Numbered from the stretch's first letter, positions 28,251-36,524 are shown. The stretch is DNA of 64,000 bases from Gemmatimonadota bacterium (GCA_036679645.1 JAZDCY010000060.1:1-64000), one strand, 5' to 3'. The notes: generated from the sequence alone by a model not told the origin. Program-made: numbers and translations.

Positions 28251-30299
28251 ATGATAGAGAGTCTCAAGCACAAGCCGCTCACCAAACGACCCGACCGCCT
28301 GACGTTTCCCGGTCGGGTGCTCTTCCTCGTGGACGATGCGCTGCTCATGCGGCGTCAGCTGGAGGGAGGAGACCTTCCCTGGCCGCCCGGTGCGGCGTTG
28401 CGAGACAACATCTCCACCGACGAGATCACGCCGGCCTACATCTGTTACTACTACGACGACACACTCGGTGATTTTCCCTACCTGGGATTGCAGGCGGGCG
28501 CCGAGTTCCCAGTCGAGCGCGAAACCGTACGAGCGGGCGGGTTCGTCTGTTCCGTCAGCGGCAAACGCCGGGGGAAAGGGTCCTCGCGCGAGCAATCGCC
28601 GTACGCAGAGATGTGCGCAGGCATCCAGTTGGTGATCGCGGAAAACATCGAGCGCATTTACCGGGAGAACTGTCAGAACCTGGGCATGCTCACGAGCACG
28701 GATTTTGGGTTGATCGGCCGCGTGCGCGCCGGCGAGGCCATTCCGCTGACCGACTTCACCGCCGGCGAAGGCGACATCACGCGGGGCGTTATCGAGTATG
28801 GCGGTCTCTTCCACTACAATGTGGCGCGTCTGCAGGGCAGGGTATCCGTGCCGGAGGTGGACACCCCCGCCCGTCCAATGACCCTTGCGGAGAAGATCAT
28901 CGCGCGTCACTGGGTGACCGATCTCGCGCACGACACGGTGGGTGTGCCGCACGTGAAGCCCGGCGACGAGGGGTTTGTGCGGACGGACATCCGCTTCAGC
29001 CACGAATACGTCACTCCCATGGCTGCCATCTTCTGGGAAGATCTGGTAGGGACGGACGAGCGCGTGGTCGATCCGGATTCCATTTTCATGTTCCGCGATC
29101 ACCTCACGTTCCTCGACCTCGTGATGACCGAGGCGCGCAAGGCCGAGGGACTCTTGGATGTCGCCCTCGAGCTGAAGGCAAAGCAGGAGGATTTCTCAGC
29201 CAAGCAGGGCATCACGCTCTACGGCGAGTTGGGCCGCCAACTCCAGGGGCGCCACGGTATTCCCACCGGATCCGAGGCGATATGCCACTCGAAGATTCTC
29301 GAGCAGCACGCCCTTCCCGGCCATCTCATTGTGGGAACCGACTCGCACACGCCGCACGCCGGTGCGATGGGCGCGATTGCTTTTGGCGTGGGCACGACGG
29401 CAATCTTCAATTCGTGGCTCACCAAGGACGTGCGCATCAAGGTGCCGCCCTCGGTGCTCGTGCGTGTGACCGGGGACAAGCCGCCGGGGATTACCGCGAA
29501 GGACTACATGTTGCAGATCCTGCGGCATCCGTACGTGAGGGATGGGCACGCGATCGGCAAGGTCGTGGAGTACGCGGGCGATGCGGTGCGAGGGCTGGAT
29601 ATCGATGAACGTGCCACGATGACCAACATGGCGGCGGAGGTCGGCGCGTTCACCGGTGTCATCAGGCCGGATGAGAAGTCGATCGAGTTTCTCTCTCGTG
29701 AACGCGGTGTGGATCCGGAAAAGGTGCGGCCATTGCTGGAGGGGCTCTTCTCAGATGCAGATGCCGAATACGAGAAGATCATTGATATCGACGCGGGCGC
29801 GTTGAAGCCGATGGTCGCCTTGCCCGGTGATCCCGGAAATGGGCTCTTCATTGATGAACTCGGCGACCGGGTGAAGGTCGACATTGCCTATGCGGGCTCG
29901 TGCACCGCCGGCAAGAAATCCGATATGGACATGTACGCCGCCGTGTTCCGTGATGCGCTGGACCGTGGCGAGCGCGTGCACGCGGACGTGAAGTGCTTCA
30001 TTCAGTGCGGATCACAGGAGGTGAAACGGTATGCGGAAGAACGGGGCTACCTCGAGATCTTCGAGAAGGCCGGCGCCGTTTTCATCGAGCCTAGCTGTGG
30101 GGCGTGCATCAACGCCGGGCCCGGCGTGTCATACGACACTGACACGGTGACGATCAGCGCCATCAACCGGAACTTCCCCGGCCGGTCCGGTCCGGGACGG
30201 CTCTACCTCGCTAATCCCTATACGACGGCGGCCTCCGCAATCGCTGGGTACATCACTGCCTGGGAGCCACGGAAGGTCGGTGCCGGGGTCTCGGTCTAG
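28251..30299 (+). CDS. aconitase-family hydratase, LeuD-like swivel domain fused N-terminal to LeuC-like domain
   Basis: DNISTDEITP and GSSREQS (small subunit), then MTLAEKI, GTDSHT, TMTNMAAE, GSCTAG, SCGACI, NRNFPGRSG (large subunit). Confidence 0.9.
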   Translation: MIESLKHKPLTKRPDRLTFPGRVLFLVDDALLMRRQLEGGDLPWPPGAALRDNISTDEITPAYICYYYDDTLGDFPYLGLQAGAEFPVERETVRAGGFVCSVSGKRRGKGSSREQSPYAEMCAGIQLVIAENIERIYRENCQNLGMLTSTDFGLIGRVRAGEAIPLTDFTAGEGDITRGVIEYGGLFHYNVARLQGRVSVPEVDTPARPMTLAEKIIARHWVTDLAHDTVGVPHVKPGDEGFVRTDIRFSHEYVTPMAAIFWEDLVGTDERVVDPDSIFMFRDHLTFLDLVMTEARKAEGLLDVALELKAKQEDFSAKQGITLYGELGRQLQGRHGIPTGSEAICHSKILEQHALPGHLIVGTDSHTPHAGAMGAIAFGVGTTAIFNSWLTKDVRIKVPPSVLVRVTGDKPPGITAKDYMLQILRHPYVRDGHAIGKVVEYAGDAVRGLDIDERATMTNMAAEVGAFTGVIRPDEKSIEFLSRERGVDPEKVRPLLEGLFSDADAEYEKIIDIDAGALKPMVALPGDPGNGLFIDELGDRVKVDIAYAGSCTAGKKSDMDMYAAVFRDALDRGERVHADVKCFIQCGSQEVKRYAEERGYLEIFEKAGAVFIEPSCGACINAGPGVSYDTDTVTISAINRNFPGRSGPGRLYLANPYTTAASAIAGYITAWEPRKVGAGVSV

Positions 30300-30830: not shown

Positions 30831-31658
30831 TCACCTGATCACCACTCCGGCATATGCCACAACGCTCTCGTCATCTCCGGTCACCCATCCGCTGTGCCGG
30901 TAGTCGACGACTTCGGCCGAGGAAGCACCGAGCTGTTTCGCGGCCTCGATCACGATCGCCGCCGGCGCGCGACCACACATCGTTACGTGCTCGCGATGGC
31001 ACACCTGCAAGAGAGCCTCGGCTTGGAGGCGTTCGATGGCGGCCAGCGCATGCTTGTCCTTGTGTGCTGCGCTCGCGGCCGACTCGTAATGAGTCATGTC
31101 CGAGGACGCGATCAACAGCACGTCGTCAGATGTCTGACGGACCACGGCGACCAGTGCGTCCGCGATCGTCCTACAGAAAGCCCAGTCGTCTGATGCGAGC
31201 ACAATGGGGACAATGCTCGTCGTGTCGCTGAGCAGCTGGAGGAAGGGAAGCTCGACCTCGATGCTGTGCTCGCCGCCATGCGCGACGGGGTCGTGCGCCA
31301 TCACGGAGCAGGTGTCGATGAGCGCTTCCGCGAACTCTTTGGCGACCTGGAGGTCTCCAAGGGGAGTCTGGAACGCGCCCCGCGCCCACGTTCCGGCGAG
31401 TCGTCCGGTCCCCACGCGGCCGCGGTGGTTCGGTCCGACGAGTACGGTTATGGGCGGGATGGCCAGGCGGCGGAAAACGTGTGCCGCACACTGGCCCGAA
31501 TAGACGAGCCCGGCGTGGGGTACGATGGCCCCGAAAGCGGGCCCGGGTTCCCCGTCGGCCCCATCGAGCTGGGTCCGGACGAGATCCTGAAGCTCGTCCC
31601 GATCTGCAGGGTAGAAGCGGCCGGCGACGGCGGGGTGGCGGAGATCGTGTTTGGGCAT
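30831..31658 (-). CDS. amrB: AmmeMemoRadiSam system protein B (MEMO1 family)
   Basis: RHPAVAGRFYP, PHAG..YSG, GPNH, EHSIEVELPFLQ, SSDMTHY, TMCG, VVAYAG. Confidence 0.9.
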   Translation of the reverse strand: MPKHDLRHPAVAGRFYPADRDELQDLVRTQLDGADGEPGPAFGAIVPHAGLVYSGQCAAHVFRRLAIPPITVLVGPNHRGRVGTGRLAGTWARGAFQTPLGDLQVAKEFAEALIDTCSVMAHDPVAHGGEHSIEVELPFLQLLSDTTSIVPIVLASDDWAFCRTIADALVAVVRQTSDDVLLIASSDMTHYESAASAAHKDKHALAAIERLQAEALLQVCHREHVTMCGRAPAAIVIEAAKQLGASSAEVVDYRHSGWVTGDDESVVAYAGVVIR

Positions 31659-31735
31659 CGTGTCCGCAGTGTTAGCGCACAGCGGAATTTCCTGCCAAGA
31701 TAGAGCCCCGAGCCTGATTCTGCGATGCGTGTGCG

Positions 31736-31831
31736 ATTGATTGCTTGCGCGCCCTAATTGACCGGTTCCGATTCCGAATTGATGCGTTCCATCCCCACAT
31801 TGACGTTGGCTTGCTTGACGCCGGCTATGTT
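31736..31831 (+). promoter_or_regulatory. phased direct-repeat promoter (putative SARP-type operator)
   Basis: ATTGA at 31736, 31757, 31778 and 31799 (exact 21 nt period), TTGC at 31811, -10-like TATGTT at 31826. Confidence 0.6.
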
Positions 31832-31885
31832 CGGCACGGTTGATCGAACACAGTGAATCTCACACCGGCGTCGGAGGAAGACGGA

Positions 31886-32098
31886 ATGTTGAAGAACAAG
31901 ATTCGGGCGATCGTGCCCATCGTCGCATTGGTCCTCGTTGCAGCCTGTTCGGATTCCACAGGCCCCGGGGCGCCGGAACTGGCGGAGATTCAGCAGGAGA
32001 GTCCGGAACAGGATCAAGCGAATAGAATACGGGGCATCGACACCGACACGAAGCGGAAGACCCCGCTCGATCAAGAGCGCGAAGACAGGGAACGGTAG
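31886..32098 (+). CDS. small lipopeptide 1 (70 aa)
   Basis: GGAGG RBS at 31873; signal peptide with VAAC lipobox, then SDSTGP; acidic tail; paralog of 34412..34603. Confidence 0.8.
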   Translation: MLKNKIRAIVPIVALVLVAACSDSTGPGAPELAEIQQESPEQDQANRIRGIDTDTKRKTPLDQEREDRER

Positions 32099-32110
32099 CT
32101 AGCGGAGAAA

Positions 32111-32197
32111 GCCGGCATACCCTTATCCATCCCACCTGCCACGGAGCAGTGCCGGCCTTAGGGGGTGTACAGCGAAAACGCTGTGCGCTCCCTCCTC
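32111..32197 (+). ncRNA. putative structured 3' RNA element/terminator, copy 1
   Basis: Stem GCCGGCAT/GTGCCGGC, then hairpin GGGGGTGTACAGCG-AAAA-CGCTGTGCGCTCCC. Confidence 0.5.
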
Positions 32198-32243
32198 CCG
32201 TTTTGGGGTGCGCGGTGAGCTGTGCGCGGGTGGGTGGGGGGGG

Positions 32244-34208
32244 TTACCCGGCTTGGTGACGTAGAGATTCGTGTCGCTGCTCGAGGCGCTTTCGCTGACC
32301 GGGAGTGAGGAGTTCCGACAAGACAACCTCGCGGAGCAACGCGGCCTCGACGAAATACCGATCTCCATCGAACGAGACGATGTGATGCCGCTCGAGTTGA
32401 GCGAGTGCATCTTCGATATCTGAGGTTGCGATATCCAGCAGTCCACTCAAGACGTCGGGTTGAACTTCGGAACCGCCGACGCAGGTCCCGACGAGCACGT
32501 CCTTTGCGGTGGCACTGAGCAGTTGGACGCGCTCCATGGTAGCCGCTTTCACTAGCTGCGGGATGTCGAACGGCACCGGAGTTTCGAGCGTGACGTTCTC
32601 GAGCGGCCACACAAGCGCCTCGCCACGCAGCGATGAAACCTCGGCGAGTCCACGCAGCAAGGACACGGTAAGGAACGGATCGCCTCCGGTCTCGAAATCC
32701 ACGCGCCGCGCGAGGCGGGCCAGTTGCTCCTCCCCGTCACACCAGGGCGCCATCTCTTGCACGAGCGCGCGGACCTCGTCACCCGAGAACAGCTCGAGCT
32801 CGACGGTTCCCCCGGCTAGGCGTCTGCCGACATCCCCCAGGAGCTTTGTGAGCCCGGTGTATTCACCCTTGGCGTCTTCGCAAGTGCTGAGCACGACGAG
32901 GATGGGGCGACCGATAGCCGTGCCAATGGCGCCTCGCAACGCCGACAACGTGGCTTCGTCGGCCAGGTGTGCGTCGTCGATGACGACCGCGAGCGGAGTT
33001 TCCTCGGCGATCGCCTCGAATAGCCCGCCCAGGGCATTCCCAATATCGGTATGGCCGAGCCCGGACATCGGCTCGAACCGTTCCGCCAATCGCGGGACGA
33101 CCGACGCGAGCATGCGTAGAGCGGTCGGATCGGTCGCGGCAAGACCCGGCGCATCGAACAGACCGCCTCGCATCAGCTGCCGCAGTGTGCTCCATGGTGT
33201 CCCGGGGTCGGTTCCCAGGGGATTGGCCAGCGCGATCATCCCACCTTCCAATCGCCACCGATTCACGCACTCCGACAGGAGCCGGGTTTTTCCTCGTCCG
33301 GCCAGCGCACTCACGACCAGCACGCGGGGACCTTGGGCAAGTGCCATGGACAACTCGGTGAATGCGCGGTTGTGCTCCCGCTCCCGCCCCACGAGCGGTG
33401 GTTCCGCGTCGGTATGCACCAGCGATGCGCGCCGCCACCGACCTTCGCGAATCCGCTCGGCCAGGGCGCGCAGCTCCTTGCTGGGCGGCACACTGTACTC
33501 GCGCTCTATGTGCCGAGCGAAATCACGATACGTAATGAGTGCGCCGGAGGAGTCGCCGCTAAGCGCGGATGCGCGCATTTGCAGCCGTACGGCCGCTTCG
33601 GCTTCGGCATCGATACCGAGCGCCCGTTGGGCCACAGTCTGAGCGACCTCGAACTCAGATGTCGAGAGCGCCTGCTCTCCGCTGTCGATCAACGAAGAGA
33701 GACTGCGGTTGCGGAGTCGCGCGCGCTCCTGCTCTAGCCACTGCTCGAACGCGGGCGCATCGGGAAGGCTCAGGCCGTCGAGGAACTCTCCGTCCCCTTC
33801 CCCGTCGCCGAGAGCATCCACGCGCAGTTGCTCGCCGCTCAGCGTGATCGCGTCGCCGCGCGAAATGAGGCGCTTGGCGCCAAGTGCGGCCCGCAGCCGG
33901 CGCACGGCCTCGTTGAGTGAATGGCGGGCGCGGGCCTGGTCCTTTTCGGGCCACAACAAGCCCATGAGATGGTCGCGGGACCGTGTGTGCTGCGGCGAAA
34001 GTGCGAGATACGCCAATAACGCCACGTGTTTCCGCCACATGACGTCGGCCGCGGGCTCCTCGCCGTCCACCAGGACGGCCGGGGGCCCGAGGCATCTCAT
34101 CTCGAGAGATCTGGGTTTCCCGAACATTGTACGCAAGCCGCTGTAATATCTCGTTTTGCGGTCAGATGTGGTACTAGACGTCCGGGTTGCATCTGGGTTG
34201 TGACTCAT
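32244..34208 (-). CDS. SARP-type wHTH-BTAD + AAA ATPase transcriptional regulator 1
   Basis: CLGPP...ALLAYLAL...RDHLMGLLWP...ARHSLNEAVRRLR, FEQWL..ER, PLVGRE, ALAGRGKT, VIDDAH, TGGDP. Start may be 34127. Confidence 0.88.
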   Translation of the reverse strand: MSHNPDATRTSSTTSDRKTRYYSGLRTMFGKPRSLEMRCLGPPAVLVDGEEPAADVMWRKHVALLAYLALSPQHTRSRDHLMGLLWPEKDQARARHSLNEAVRRLRAALGAKRLISRGDAITLSGEQLRVDALGDGEGDGEFLDGLSLPDAPAFEQWLEQERARLRNRSLSSLIDSGEQALSTSEFEVAQTVAQRALGIDAEAEAAVRLQMRASALSGDSSGALITYRDFARHIEREYSVPPSKELRALAERIREGRWRRASLVHTDAEPPLVGREREHNRAFTELSMALAQGPRVLVVSALAGRGKTRLLSECVNRWRLEGGMIALANPLGTDPGTPWSTLRQLMRGGLFDAPGLAATDPTALRMLASVVPRLAERFEPMSGLGHTDIGNALGGLFEAIAEETPLAVVIDDAHLADEATLSALRGAIGTAIGRPILVVLSTCEDAKGEYTGLTKLLGDVGRRLAGGTVELELFSGDEVRALVQEMAPWCDGEEQLARLARRVDFETGGDPFLTVSLLRGLAEVSSLRGEALVWPLENVTLETPVPFDIPQLVKAATMERVQLLSATAKDVLVGTCVGGSEVQPDVLSGLLDIATSDIEDALAQLERHHIVSFDGDRYFVEAALLREVVLSELLTPGQRKRLEQRHESLRHQAG

Positions 34209-34314
34209 TCAGTAGAGCAATACGGGTGAAGTGATCGGAAAGATGCGAAGAAGGCGGAATGGCGAGAAGGGCGCTTGAGGGCGGGAATAGGTTAAATGGT
34301 TATACGACAGTGAG

Positions 34315-34367
34315 TTGACAGCAGTTGGCGGGGGATTGAGAGCTGCTTGAGGGGTGGTCCCTAGCTT
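34315..34367 (+). promoter_or_regulatory. phased direct-repeat promoter (putative SARP-type operator)
   Basis: TTGA 34315, TTGG 34325, TTGA 34336, TTGA 34347, -10-like TAGCTT at 34362. Confidence 0.6.
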
Positions 34368-34411
34368 TGCTTTCAGTAAGTGACGGCAATGACCTGCTCT
34401 GGAGGCGAACC

Positions 34412-34603
34412 ATGAAAGCCAAGCGCATTTTCCCCGCAATCGCGATCACGCTGATCCTCGCTCTTTCTGCCTGCTCAGACGCTCTCGGGCCGACCGGTCA
34501 GAACCCAGAAGTCGCCACGGTGCTCGAGAACCAGGACGACTCCAGCCAGGACGCGCAGGGACAGCAGGGCAAGAAGCAGGATAACCCGCTCGAACAGCAG
34601 TAG
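34412..34603 (+). CDS. small lipopeptide 2 (63 aa)
   Basis: GGAGG RBS at 34401; LSAC lipobox, then SDALGP; Q/D-rich tail ending NPLEQQ. Confidence 0.8.
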   Translation: MKAKRIFPAIAITLILALSACSDALGPTGQNPEVATVLENQDDSSQDAQGQQGKKQDNPLEQQ

Positions 34604-34622
34604 GGATCGCTGAGAGGTTCTA

Positions 34623-34701
34623 CCGCCGGGAAGATCGACCATCTCGCCTCGGAGCAAACCGGCGGCCTAGGGGGCGCGGAGGGAAACCTCCCGCCCCTCC
34701 T
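34623..34701 (+). ncRNA. putative structured 3' RNA element/terminator, copy 2
   Basis: Stem CCGCCGG/CCGGCGG, then hairpin GGGGGCGCGGAGG-GAAA-CCTCCCGCCCCT. Confidence 0.5.
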
Positions 34702-34766
34702 TCCTTTCCCCCCAACCCTTCCACACCACCCCCGGTGGGAGGGCGGAAAGGCGGAAAGAGTAGCCG

Positions 34767-35849
34767 CTATCTGCCGCCTCGCATCCGCTCCACCACCATA
34801 TTGCCCATGTCGGAGGTCGCGATGCCGCTGCGGGCGTCGGCCGATTTCACCTGACCGCTCGTGAGGAGGTCCGCGATCGCGTCGTCGATGCGTTTGGCGC
34901 CGCTCGTCTCGCCAAGGAAGTCGAGCATCATGCCCGCGGCCGAGATGGCGCCGAGTGGGCAGGCGACGTTTTTGCCGGCGTACTTGGGTGCCGAGCCGTG
35001 GATCGGCTCGAACATCGACGTCTGACCTGGGTGGATGTTCCCTGAGGCGGCGATGCCCATGCCGCCCTGGAGCATGGCGCCCAGGTCGGTGATGATGTCG
35101 CCGAACAGGTTCGTGGTGACGAGCACGTCGAACCACTCGGGGTTCTTGATCATCCACATACAGCACGCGTCGACGTACGCGTGGTCCTGCTCAACCTGCG
35201 GGAAATCCTCCGCGACTTGCGCGTACACACGCGTCCAGAGGTCGTGGGGCCGTATGGCGTTCGCCTTGTCGACAAGCATCACACGCGCCTGGTGTCCGTT
35301 GCCTTTTTCCTTCGCGCGTCTCTCGGCGAGCTCGAAGGCGTAGCGCGATGCCCGCTCACAGCCCTTCCATGTGTACACGCCGTTCACGAGGGCAACCTCG
35401 TCGGGCGTGTTCTTCTTCAGGTGCCCGCCGATCTGCGCATAGAGTCCCTCGGTATTCTCGCGGACGACGATGAAGTCGATGTCGTCGGGTCCCTTGCCCT
35501 TCAACGGACAGAGGTGCTCGCTATAGAGCTTGATGGGCCGGAGATTGATGTAGAGATCGAGGCCGAATCGCAGTCCCAGAATGACCGATCGCTCGACCAG
35601 CCCAGGCTCGACGTCCGGATGCCCGATGGCGCCGAGCAGTACGGCGTCGAGCGTGCGCCACTCGTCGATGACCGAGTCGGGGACCAACTCCCTGGTCTTG
35701 AGGTAGTAGTCGCCGCTGTAGGGGTAGTCGACCAGTTCGTAGGTGAACCCCTCGAGCTTGGCTACAGCCGCGAGGGCTTTGAGCGCTTCGTCGGTGACCT
35801 CGGGTCCAATACCGTCACCGGGGAGGACCCCGATCGTGTAGGATGCCAT
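34767..35849 (-). CDS. leuB: 3-isopropylmalate dehydrogenase (beta-decarboxylating dehydrogenase family)
   Basis: PGDGIGPEV, NLRP, VRENTEG.Y, VDKAN, NLFGDIITD, FEPIHGSAP. Confidence 0.85.
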   Translation of the reverse strand: MASYTIGVLPGDGIGPEVTDEALKALAAVAKLEGFTYELVDYPYSGDYYLKTRELVPDSVIDEWRTLDAVLLGAIGHPDVEPGLVERSVILGLRFGLDLYINLRPIKLYSEHLCPLKGKGPDDIDFIVVRENTEGLYAQIGGHLKKNTPDEVALVNGVYTWKGCERASRYAFELAERRAKEKGNGHQARVMLVDKANAIRPHDLWTRVYAQVAEDFPQVEQDHAYVDACCMWMIKNPEWFDVLVTTNLFGDIITDLGAMLQGGMGIAASGNIHPGQTSMFEPIHGSAPKYAGKNVACPLGAISAAGMMLDFLGETSGAKRIDDAIADLLTSGQVKSADARSGIATSDMGNMVVERMRGGR

Positions 35850-35867: not shown

Positions 35868-36524
35868 TCAGAAGCCGAAGGAGAGCCCAATCGAGATGAC
35901 CGGATAGTACTTGAACAGATTGAGATCGTCCTCCGCGGCGGCCACTTCCCGGTCGAGGTCGGCCTGGAAGCCTGGCGTCTGGGAGATCGGACCGTTCGCC
36001 GTGAACGTCACGTCGGGCTGTCCCTGAAAGGCGACGCCCAAGTCGAGGATGAACCCGATCCGTCCGCTGGCGATGTTCCCCCATCCGATGCCGATGTAAG
36101 GCGCGATGTCGTTGTTGACGATCGTCCCGGTCAGGCTACCGACATCTGTTCCCGCGTAGGTGGAATCCCCGATATCAACCGTTCCCGTGAATACGCCGGT
36201 GATGTCGAGATCCGGTGAGGAGAACAAGACGCCGCCGCTCACGCGGAACTGACCCGCGAGAAAGAGGTCGACGAATCCGACGAACTGCGGTGAGGGAAGG
36301 TCGACCGTGAAGTCGATGTCCGAGATCGTGAGATCGATATCCGATGGGAAGATGCCACCGCCGACGCGCAAGGTGACCCGATCGTGCACCGCGATGCCGA
36401 TGTCCGCACCCAATCCCAGCGTGCCGACGTGGGGCGCCACGCCAAAGCTCGGGCCTTGGGCCAGGATTGGAGCGGGCGCCGTCGCCACAGCGAGGCACGC
36501 GAAGAGGGTCAGCAGGCGTGTCAT
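35868..36524 (-). CDS. outer membrane beta-barrel protein
   Basis: Signal peptide, GTLGLG, PYIGIGWG, C-terminal aromatic residue (GLSFGF); GGAG RBS. Confidence 0.8.
   Translation of the reverse strand: MTRLLTLFACLAVATAPAPILAQGPSFGVAPHVGTLGLGADIGIAVHDRVTLRVGGGIFPSDIDLTISDIDFTVDLPSPQFVGFVDLFLAGQFRVSGGVLFSSPDLDITGVFTGTVDIGDSTYAGTDVGSLTGTIVNNDIAPYIGIGWGNIASGRIGFILDLGVAFQGQPDVTFTANGPISQTPGFQADLDREVAAAEDDLNLFKYYPVISIGLSFGF

Follow-up and report, generated by a model that had tools for sequence, protein, structure and literature searches.

Direct TTGA repeats upstream of two predicted lipopeptide genes in a Gemmatimonadota bacterium: a probable operator of a SARP-type activator

We analyzed a 64,000-nucleotide stretch of DNA from a Gemmatimonadota bacterium (GCA_036679645.1, JAZDCY010000060.1:1-64000; hereafter the window), in which two small plus-strand genes encoding predicted lipopeptides (genes 1 and 2) are each preceded by direct repeats of TTGA (boxes). 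Between them, on the minus strand, lies the gene of a large regulator, P0003, convergent with one small gene and divergent from the other. Sequence comparison makes it probable that a SARP-type activator uses the repeats as its operator; this activator is most likely the neighboring P0003, a protein with a winged helix-turn-helix (wHTH), a BTAD and an AAA domain, or a paralogue with an identical recognition helix. The architecture appears to be a conserved SARP-type activator-dependent promoter like that of AfsR/afsS, and P0003 is not an AfsR orthologue. The geometry of the boxes, their conservation, their linkage to one regulator clade and their covariation with the recognition helix were all observed. 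Genomes, contigs, loci and families are denoted by our own handles (G, C, L and f), the genome of the window being G000.

The preliminary description of the window had placed four TTGA boxes upstream of gene 1, all of them ATTGA and at an exact period of 21 nt, and three upstream of gene 2. These positions (Table 1) proved exact, as did those of the TTGC and TATGTT of gene 1 and of the TTGG (34325) and TAGCTT of gene 2. In gene 1, the TTGC follows the fourth TTGA by 11 nt and TATGTT lies 15 nt beyond the TTGC; at both promoters the repeats do sit at -47, -26 and -15 from the -10-like hexamer. The intervening sequence had been said to differ, and the promoters have the same base at just 14 of 52 positions outside the boxes. 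When the hexamer is set at -12, the boxes begin at -59, -38 and -27, and by analogy with the numbering of afsS, transcription would start near 31838 (gene 1) and 34374 (gene 2). Further TTGA, omitted from that description, occur at 31815 and 31840 (gene 1) and at 34275 (gene 2), the last at -87 and off the 21-nt phase.

Chance, or the remnant of one local promoter duplication, might be held to produce such a likeness: the pattern was first defined from the two window sites, and a short similar 3' stretch common to both genes suggests that they may be old duplicates. However, dinucleotide shuffles of either upstream region reproduced the pattern in 0 of 20,000 trials, four equally spaced TTGA at any period from 5 to 40 likewise arose in 0 of 20,000, the promoters share little outside the boxes, and there are 127 further matches in 42 other genomes. 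As a full explanation this is refuted by the family-wide matches, the fixed spacing and the linkage test reported below, and we regard its probability as negligible.

A standard sigma70 promoter scan found none in the region, the box-to-hexamer spacers being 20 and 9 rather than 16-18. Ordinary sigma70 promoters are present in this genome, with a peak at the 17-bp spacer (66 versus about 7 at other spacings); therefore, the sites with 20-bp and 9-bp spacers represent a separate promoter class. By eye, gene 1 allowed a sigma54-like reading that was absent in gene 2, and it was dropped. LytTR regulators use 21-bp direct repeats before peptide genes and MerR regulators act on sigma70 promoters with a long spacer, and the 21-bp period and the 20-bp spacer between TTGAC and the -10 element would suit either. 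However, the LytTR domain PF04397 had no match in G000, which is 93% complete, the spacer contains a direct repeat and not a palindrome, and the TTCA and TTGG variants described below are not -35 elements; action of a LytTR or MerR regulator on these promoters is very improbable. Elsewhere in the genome, TTGAC, a long palindromic spacer and TANNNT occur at G000:C17:13170, 28621 and 28636, and we take these sites to resemble MerR-type promoters.

Table 1. Predicted features of the module, in coordinates of the window
Feature	Position	Strand	Basis
Gene-1 operator array (predicted)	31735..31817	+	TTGA 31737/31758/31779/31800 at 21-bp period, proximal TTGC 31811
Predicted -10 hexamer TATGTT, gene 1	31826..31831	+	position fixed in 72/97 triple repeats
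Gene 1, predicted lipopeptide of 70 aa with a signal peptide ending LVAAC	31886..32098	+	read from sequence
3' structured element: outer GC stem, C-rich internal region, terminator-like hairpin; candidate small RNA	32107..32197	+	model R1
Regulator P0003, 627 aa, OmpR-type wHTH + BTAD + AAA_16 NTPase	32244..34127	-	Pfam, profile and fold matches
Gene-2 operator array (predicted)	34313..34353	+	TTGA 34315, 34336, 34347
Predicted -10 hexamer TAGCTT, gene 2	34362..34367	+	same basis as gene 1 hexamer
Gene 2, predicted lipopeptide of 63 aa with a signal peptide ending LSAC	34412..34603	+	read from sequence
Second copy of 3' structured element, with terminator-like hairpin	34621..34702	+	model R1
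Paralogous wHTH-BTAD-AAA regulator, 48% identical to P0003, same recognition helix	36593..38470	-	Pfam, alignment

A genome scan with the pattern of the preliminary description returned 3 matches in 4.05 Mb, two of them the window sites and the third preceding a conserved AraC-like gene. Across 251 genomes of the family, TTGA-N17-TTGA-N7-TTG-N12-YANNNT had 130 matches in 43 genomes and its reversed form, a control that probably underestimates the background somewhat, had 4, indicating that the pattern does not occur at background frequency. A three-box matrix trained on another genus ranked the gene-1 site second and the gene-2 site third in the genome. The hexamer was then left out of the search in five motif-rich genomes, picked from the result of the 130-match scan; of 97 triple repeats, 72 had YANNNT at the exact distance, where base composition predicts roughly 2% by our estimate. 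The distal period in these genomes was 21 bp at 72 sites, 18-20 bp at 5 and 22-24 bp at 1. In unselected columns, the logo of 94 sites showed RRTTGACYG as the unit of each of the three boxes and no signal at the turn that is skipped. The two-box core was more widespread, with 1,637 matches in 240 of the 251 genomes, and in a spacing grid of the window's own genome TTGA-N7-TTGA-N11-YANNNT had 7 matches versus a mean of 0.82 in 79 other cells. Scanning the genome with a two-box matrix gave 31 matches versus 12-33 with shifted spacers and had little power below about 17 bits; AraC-like promoters formed part of the training set of that matrix, which makes its AraC counts circular, and these were not used.

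Some of these sites deserve mention in their own right. Four genomes of one genus (G126, G175, G212 and G242; genus g54) each carry 8-29 copies of the triple-box pattern, mostly before genes for secreted proteins, lipoproteins and kinases, and their regulon appears enlarged. The best three-box score in the window's genome belongs to G000:C7:242088-242203 (L186), where five TTGA boxes at a 21-bp period and one at 11 bp precede the gene of an 896-aa secreted protein, yet the hexamer is TTAATT; it is likely a distant target. Double boxes also occur at C35:94971 (-), C20:18843 (-), C62:11474 (-) and C89:2951 (+), before genes for a 1,100-aa SARP-like protein, a Ser/Thr kinase and a peptidase-like protein and before an unassigned open reading frame (ORF), respectively.

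P0003 begins with an OmpR-type wHTH followed by a BTAD, the domain order that defines SARPs. Both Pfam matches lie above the cut-off (PF00486, E 1.8e-6; PF03704, E 2e-12, matched from position 46 of 146); beyond them Pfam matched AAA_16 only, with no NB-ARC or TPR. The start at 34127 was taken from the homologue alignment, and another in-frame ATG lies at 34208. A profile of 52 homologous N-terminal regions matched EmbR (E 1.3e-12) and AfsR (E 1e-8), and chains of these two proteins were the sole Foldseek matches of the predicted P0003 structure (pLDDT 93.9) at E<=0.001. Searching the PDB with full-length P0003 by phmmer gave 0 matches, but the N-terminal piece and the profile did reach AfsR and EmbR. 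In a weak HMMER alignment with AfsR (E 0.21), W74, R92 and R94 are retained as W59, R77 and R79, and AfsR T88, P79 and K95 correspond to E, Q and A in P0003. The recognition helix of P0003 reads ARHSLNEAVRRLR. Almost all of the 80 best homologue loci are recorded as Gemmatimonadota/Gemmatimonadales; we defined the close clade by E<1e-100, within which the helix is nearly invariant (ARHSLNEAxRRLR), and treated the others as more distant.

The boxes are linked to this clade. The triple pattern was found in 29 of 55 genomes with the close clade versus 13 of 195 without it, counts in which related genomes are not independent. For a test at individual loci, we used the three-box matrix, built from 48 sites of another genus, at a threshold of at least 15 bits. 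Such sites lay near 14 of 31 close homologues and 0 of 24 distant ones; among control loci the counts were 0/30 for recA, 0/19 for OmpR, 2/30 for C7-type SARP and 4/30 for AraC-like genes. A replicate drew on 80 further loci; once 23 duplicates had been removed, the matrix scored at 19 of the 45 new close loci and at 2 of the 12 distant ones. Most sites are convergent to the 3' end of the regulator gene and precede a predicted lipopeptide of 49-83 aa, the mature part of which is not conserved. An SOS (LexA) box was rejected on the basis of the recA loci, one f5 genome having a core box before recA. A direct repeat of the TCGG-N-TTCGG type, about 11 bp apart, precedes recA itself in several genomes (G000:C38 L318; L298, L317, L321) and is a candidate SOS box of the family.

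The nature of the nearby variants also bears on the reader. The box sequence appears to track position 69 of the recognition helix: H69 goes with TTGA, R69 with TTGG, and A, T or Q69 with TTCA. With TTCA in place of TTGA, the full pattern has exactly two occurrences in this genome, both of them less than 600 bp from the SARP paralogue on C7 (helix ARASLRQ) and before a short peptide gene with an ELEERIAP motif. Orthologues of the C7 paralogue (30 loci, this genome included) had TTCA double boxes at 15 of 30 loci and TTGA at 0, and P0003-type loci had TTGA double boxes at 8 of 55 and TTCA at 0. In the 80-locus set, TTGG/TTGT boxes accompanied all six R69 regulators (6/6) and (T/G)TCA boxes in the same 21+11+15 geometry all three Q69 regulators (3/3), these boxes being read by eye from the best matrix match or the 3' flank. 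A FastTree of 50 regulators from residue 100 onward, which excludes the helix, put the R69 proteins in three separate places, with TTGA rows selected by matrix score and deep nodes weakly supported. By a weak alignment, AfsR has A at the position matching 69, and its box is TTCA.

The C7 locus is itself of interest. At G000:C7:251660-252400 (L177), and at L189-L217, tandem genes for ELEERIAP peptides of 47-55 aa each carry TTCA boxes; they are divergent from the SARP paralogue, are followed by a GAF/HlyD-type gene and show a weak match to the NHLP-clan family NF038399 (E 0.0045). Conserved in about 30 of 151 genomes, the locus has the appearance of a peptide-precursor cluster under SARP control.

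The repeats could also be read by an alternative sigma factor or by a response regulator of the OmpR/PhoP type. In PMC10972967, the afs repeat is given as CGTT(T/C)ATCGNN and PhoP binds it at afsS too; moreover, the two-box core is nearly universal in the family, and canonical OmpR-type regulators number 6 in this genome and 2 in G078. However, no boxes were found near the 19 OmpR loci, and the locus-specific TTGA, TTGG, TTCA and GTGA variants change with the helix of the SARP at that locus, a result that a single trans-acting factor would not produce. We consider this reading quite unlikely.

Several observations weigh against P0003 or its clade as reader of the boxes. The window paralogue shares the recognition helix of P0003, so the adjacent regulator cannot be singled out as the reader; the paralogue has no box in its own +-1.5 kb flanks (L023, best score -3.0). 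No box was found within the flanks of 17 of 31 and 26 of 45 close homologues, contig ends cutting some of these flanks, and in G001 the gene-1 orthologue with its boxes lies on a different contig from the 67%-identical regulator. Walker A has K changed to R in many P0003 orthologues, which makes control by the NTPase (nucleoside triphosphatase) domain uncertain. Of the 19 family genomes without the top regulator clade (21 candidates scored per genome), 18 contain the two-box core. G294 has 10 two-box cores and one distant SARP; G078 has 5 boxes and the 2 OmpR regulators, and the scoring of all its 45 candidates gave no SARP match. Because the core occurs in a genome without a detectable SARP, at least one other factor probably also reads the double box across the family. 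Within the helix, E73 (AfsR T88) is an imperfect predictor of base 3 of the box: two regulators with M or Q carry GTGA boxes, exceptions that weaken such a rule, and the paralogue on C35, with Q73, is nevertheless preceded by a TTGA double box. A strict double box stands upstream of 21 of 30 AraC-like orthologues. Finally, the preliminary description had matched the promoters to the known architecture of SARP/OmpR-type wHTH regulators; the 11-bp repeats over the -35 region, the domains and fold of the regulator, the clade linkage and the helix covariation bear this out, but the distal repeats are 21 bp apart, whereas 22 bp is cited for SARPs.

The AraC-like genes lead to a further reading, in which the boxes are read by an order-wide AraC-like protein, P0004, and the SARP genes are merely near its targets. 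A 21-bp period is typical of AraC/XylS sites; the AraC-like gene is present in 55 of 55 f1 genomes, including G078, which has no SARP match, and in family f2 a VTGAC variant of the boxes stands at the AraC-like gene. However, the gene is also present in 27 of the 28 genomes of f2, a family whose TTGA cores are near background (15 matches, control 10), and was found in 0 of 6 f5/f6 genomes, where the cores reach 13 and 9 per genome. The -59 box is the best-kept one beside the regulator, and AraC-like promoters mostly lack it (4/30 at >=15 bits). Nor can P0004 account for boxes that change with the helix of the adjacent SARP. As a full explanation, we consider this unlikely; a weaker form, in which P0004 or another factor reads the two-box core and SARPs read the triple boxes, is fairly likely and is compatible with SARP-type activation of the window promoters. 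The triple boxes beside the P0003 clade are likely read by that clade, as judged from their linkage and covariation.

The AraC-like gene (PF12833; G000:C4:72453-73393, L147; L148-L176) has a highly conserved double-box promoter and may be autoregulated. In L004 and L025 it is divergent from a P0003-type regulator, and in f2 and f3 its promoters carry a VTGAC variant of the repeats, some 10 nt away from the -10 element. The RNA gene upstream of it resembles that of RNase P RNA.

The closest known counterpart is AfsR/afsS of Streptomyces coelicolor. AfsR likewise has a wHTH and a BTAD followed by a P-loop NTPase, has a small target gene next to it, and is the best match to the predicted structure. 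PMC10936776 describes two 11-bp repeats of AfsR at -40 to -19 with T-38 and T-27 essential, a poor -35 element (TTCAGC) and a -10 element CACTGT at afsS, and SARP repeats 11 or 22 bp apart with 8 bp to the -10 element; PMC11301090 and PMC5930380 give a 20-bp spacer for the afsS promoter and a 10-bp variant for PimR, respectively. The window promoters share the 11-bp direct repeats at -38/-27, the 20-bp spacer and a weak YANNNT -10 element, and RRTTGACYG aligns in register with CGTT(T/C)ATCG as given in PMC10972967. The differences are that the present system is in Gemmatimonadota and not Actinomycetota, the core is TTGA and not TT(C/T)A, extra boxes stand at a strict 21-bp period, and the targets are predicted lipopeptides or short RNAs. 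In bioRxiv 10.64898/2026.09.02.748808, AfsR-type large SARPs are defined by an NB-ARC NOD and a C-terminal TPR sensor, whereas P0003 has AAA_16 and no C-terminal TPR array. The cluster-situated SARPs ActII-ORF4, DnrI and PimR also use three repeats, and counting the heptamer from TTG puts the 3' one 8 bp from the -10 element; the published spacings are 11 or 22 bp, whereas those found here are 11 and 21, and no more than 1 of 78 sites has 22-24 bp. Mycobacterium EmbR is the closest profile match (TM about 0.68) but ends in an FHA domain and has no NTPase.

By analogy with AfsR, a SARP-type activator would switch on the two promoters, which have no correctly spaced -35 element: two adjacent protomers, one on the -38 and one on the -27 box, would re-dock sigma region 4 over the 20-bp spacer, and further protomers might occupy the boxes that lie two turns (21 bp) farther upstream, perhaps in an oligomer under control of the NTPase. 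As output we predict a short transcript that encodes a lipopeptide and ends in a structured RNA. By eye, both small ORFs show a basic N-terminus, a hydrophobic stretch and L-x-A-C, features suggestive of a signal peptide II with a lipobox cysteine. Gene 1 matched no Pfam or NCBIfam family; it has three homologues of 68-71 aa, and the G001 orthologue carries the same boxes. A 27-nt stretch encoding the C-terminus of gene 2 is 78% alike to gene 1.

The 3' structured element was assessed with R1, a covariance model built from 7 copies outside the window. The element after gene 1 was the best R1 match in the window (28.3 bits, E 0.0009; fold z -5.5) and that after gene 2 the second (25.3 bits, E 0.0033, next match E 0.37; fold z just -1.8). 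Rfam gave no match below E 0.44 at positions 31500-34900 of the window, and in 5 loci no match reached the gathering score. Several regulator loci have no ORF after the box but a structured element of about 90 nt with a terminator-like hairpin; a triple box precedes the same element without an intervening ORF in at least 8 other loci (L084, L087, L091, L095, L097, L104, L332 and L338). New R1 copies beside a regulator were found in G074 and L338 (no ORF) and in G119 (after a lipopeptide). In an alignment of 11 element sequences, which was fitted to the model, 84% of cells pair; two-sided changes lie mostly in the terminator, and the outer helix has two. Under strict filters, R1 matched in 8 of 141 genomes (4 training, 2 genuine and 2 apparent chance matches, E about 0.05) and missed the elements of G000, G001 and L080; either the element is lineage-limited or the model is narrow. 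Separately, two different short ORF-less hairpin-plus-terminator elements with C-rich loops follow boxes convergent to the regulator (L351, L363, L364 and L371; L350, L356 and L361).

A role of the 3' element as a small RNA is our hypothesis; it could also be a conserved 3' untranslated region or a degenerate remnant after ORF loss. In the CiaR-controlled small RNAs (csRNAs), an OmpR-type wHTH acts on 11-bp direct repeats just upstream from the -10 element to drive short structured RNAs with C-rich unpaired regions. The window module is similar in that a wHTH on 11-bp repeats would lead to a short C-rich structured RNA, but the regulator is of another class and the element has no Rfam match and often follows a lipopeptide ORF. 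We tentatively propose, as a possibility rather than an expectation, that the SARP-NTPase regulators of Gemmatimonadota are portable modules, in which a small structured RNA with unpaired C-rich regions is the conserved output and the lipopeptide ORF an optional passenger, with a readable helix-to-base code at position 69 (H, GA; R, GG; A/T/Q, CA).

No biosynthetic cluster was seen in the 28 kb annotated. On one side of the module lies an aconitase-family gene (28251-30299, +) with its C-terminal-type domain placed first, and on the other an isopropylmalate/isocitrate dehydrogenase gene (34767-35849, -). Directly downstream of the second regulator, 35868-36524 (-) encodes a 218-aa outer-membrane protein with a CarO-like match (E 4e-12, below the cut-off).

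Searching the literature, we found no described transcription-factor motif in Gemmatimonadota; relative to that literature, the phylum, the strict 21-bp distal phase, the lipopeptide and small-RNA targets and the helix-to-base code in natural variation appear to be new. The findings provide a testable promoter class and regulon for a little-studied phylum, to which they would extend a kind of promoter familiar chiefly from the antibiotic producers of the genus Streptomyces, and suggest that the 'sigma adaptation' geometry of AfsR is used outside Actinomycetota. They also point to an undescribed small-RNA output. If the covariation of helix and box is a specificity code, it could predict the targets of orphan wHTH-BTAD regulators, including peptide-precursor clusters such as the ELEERIAP genes beside the TTCA paralogue.

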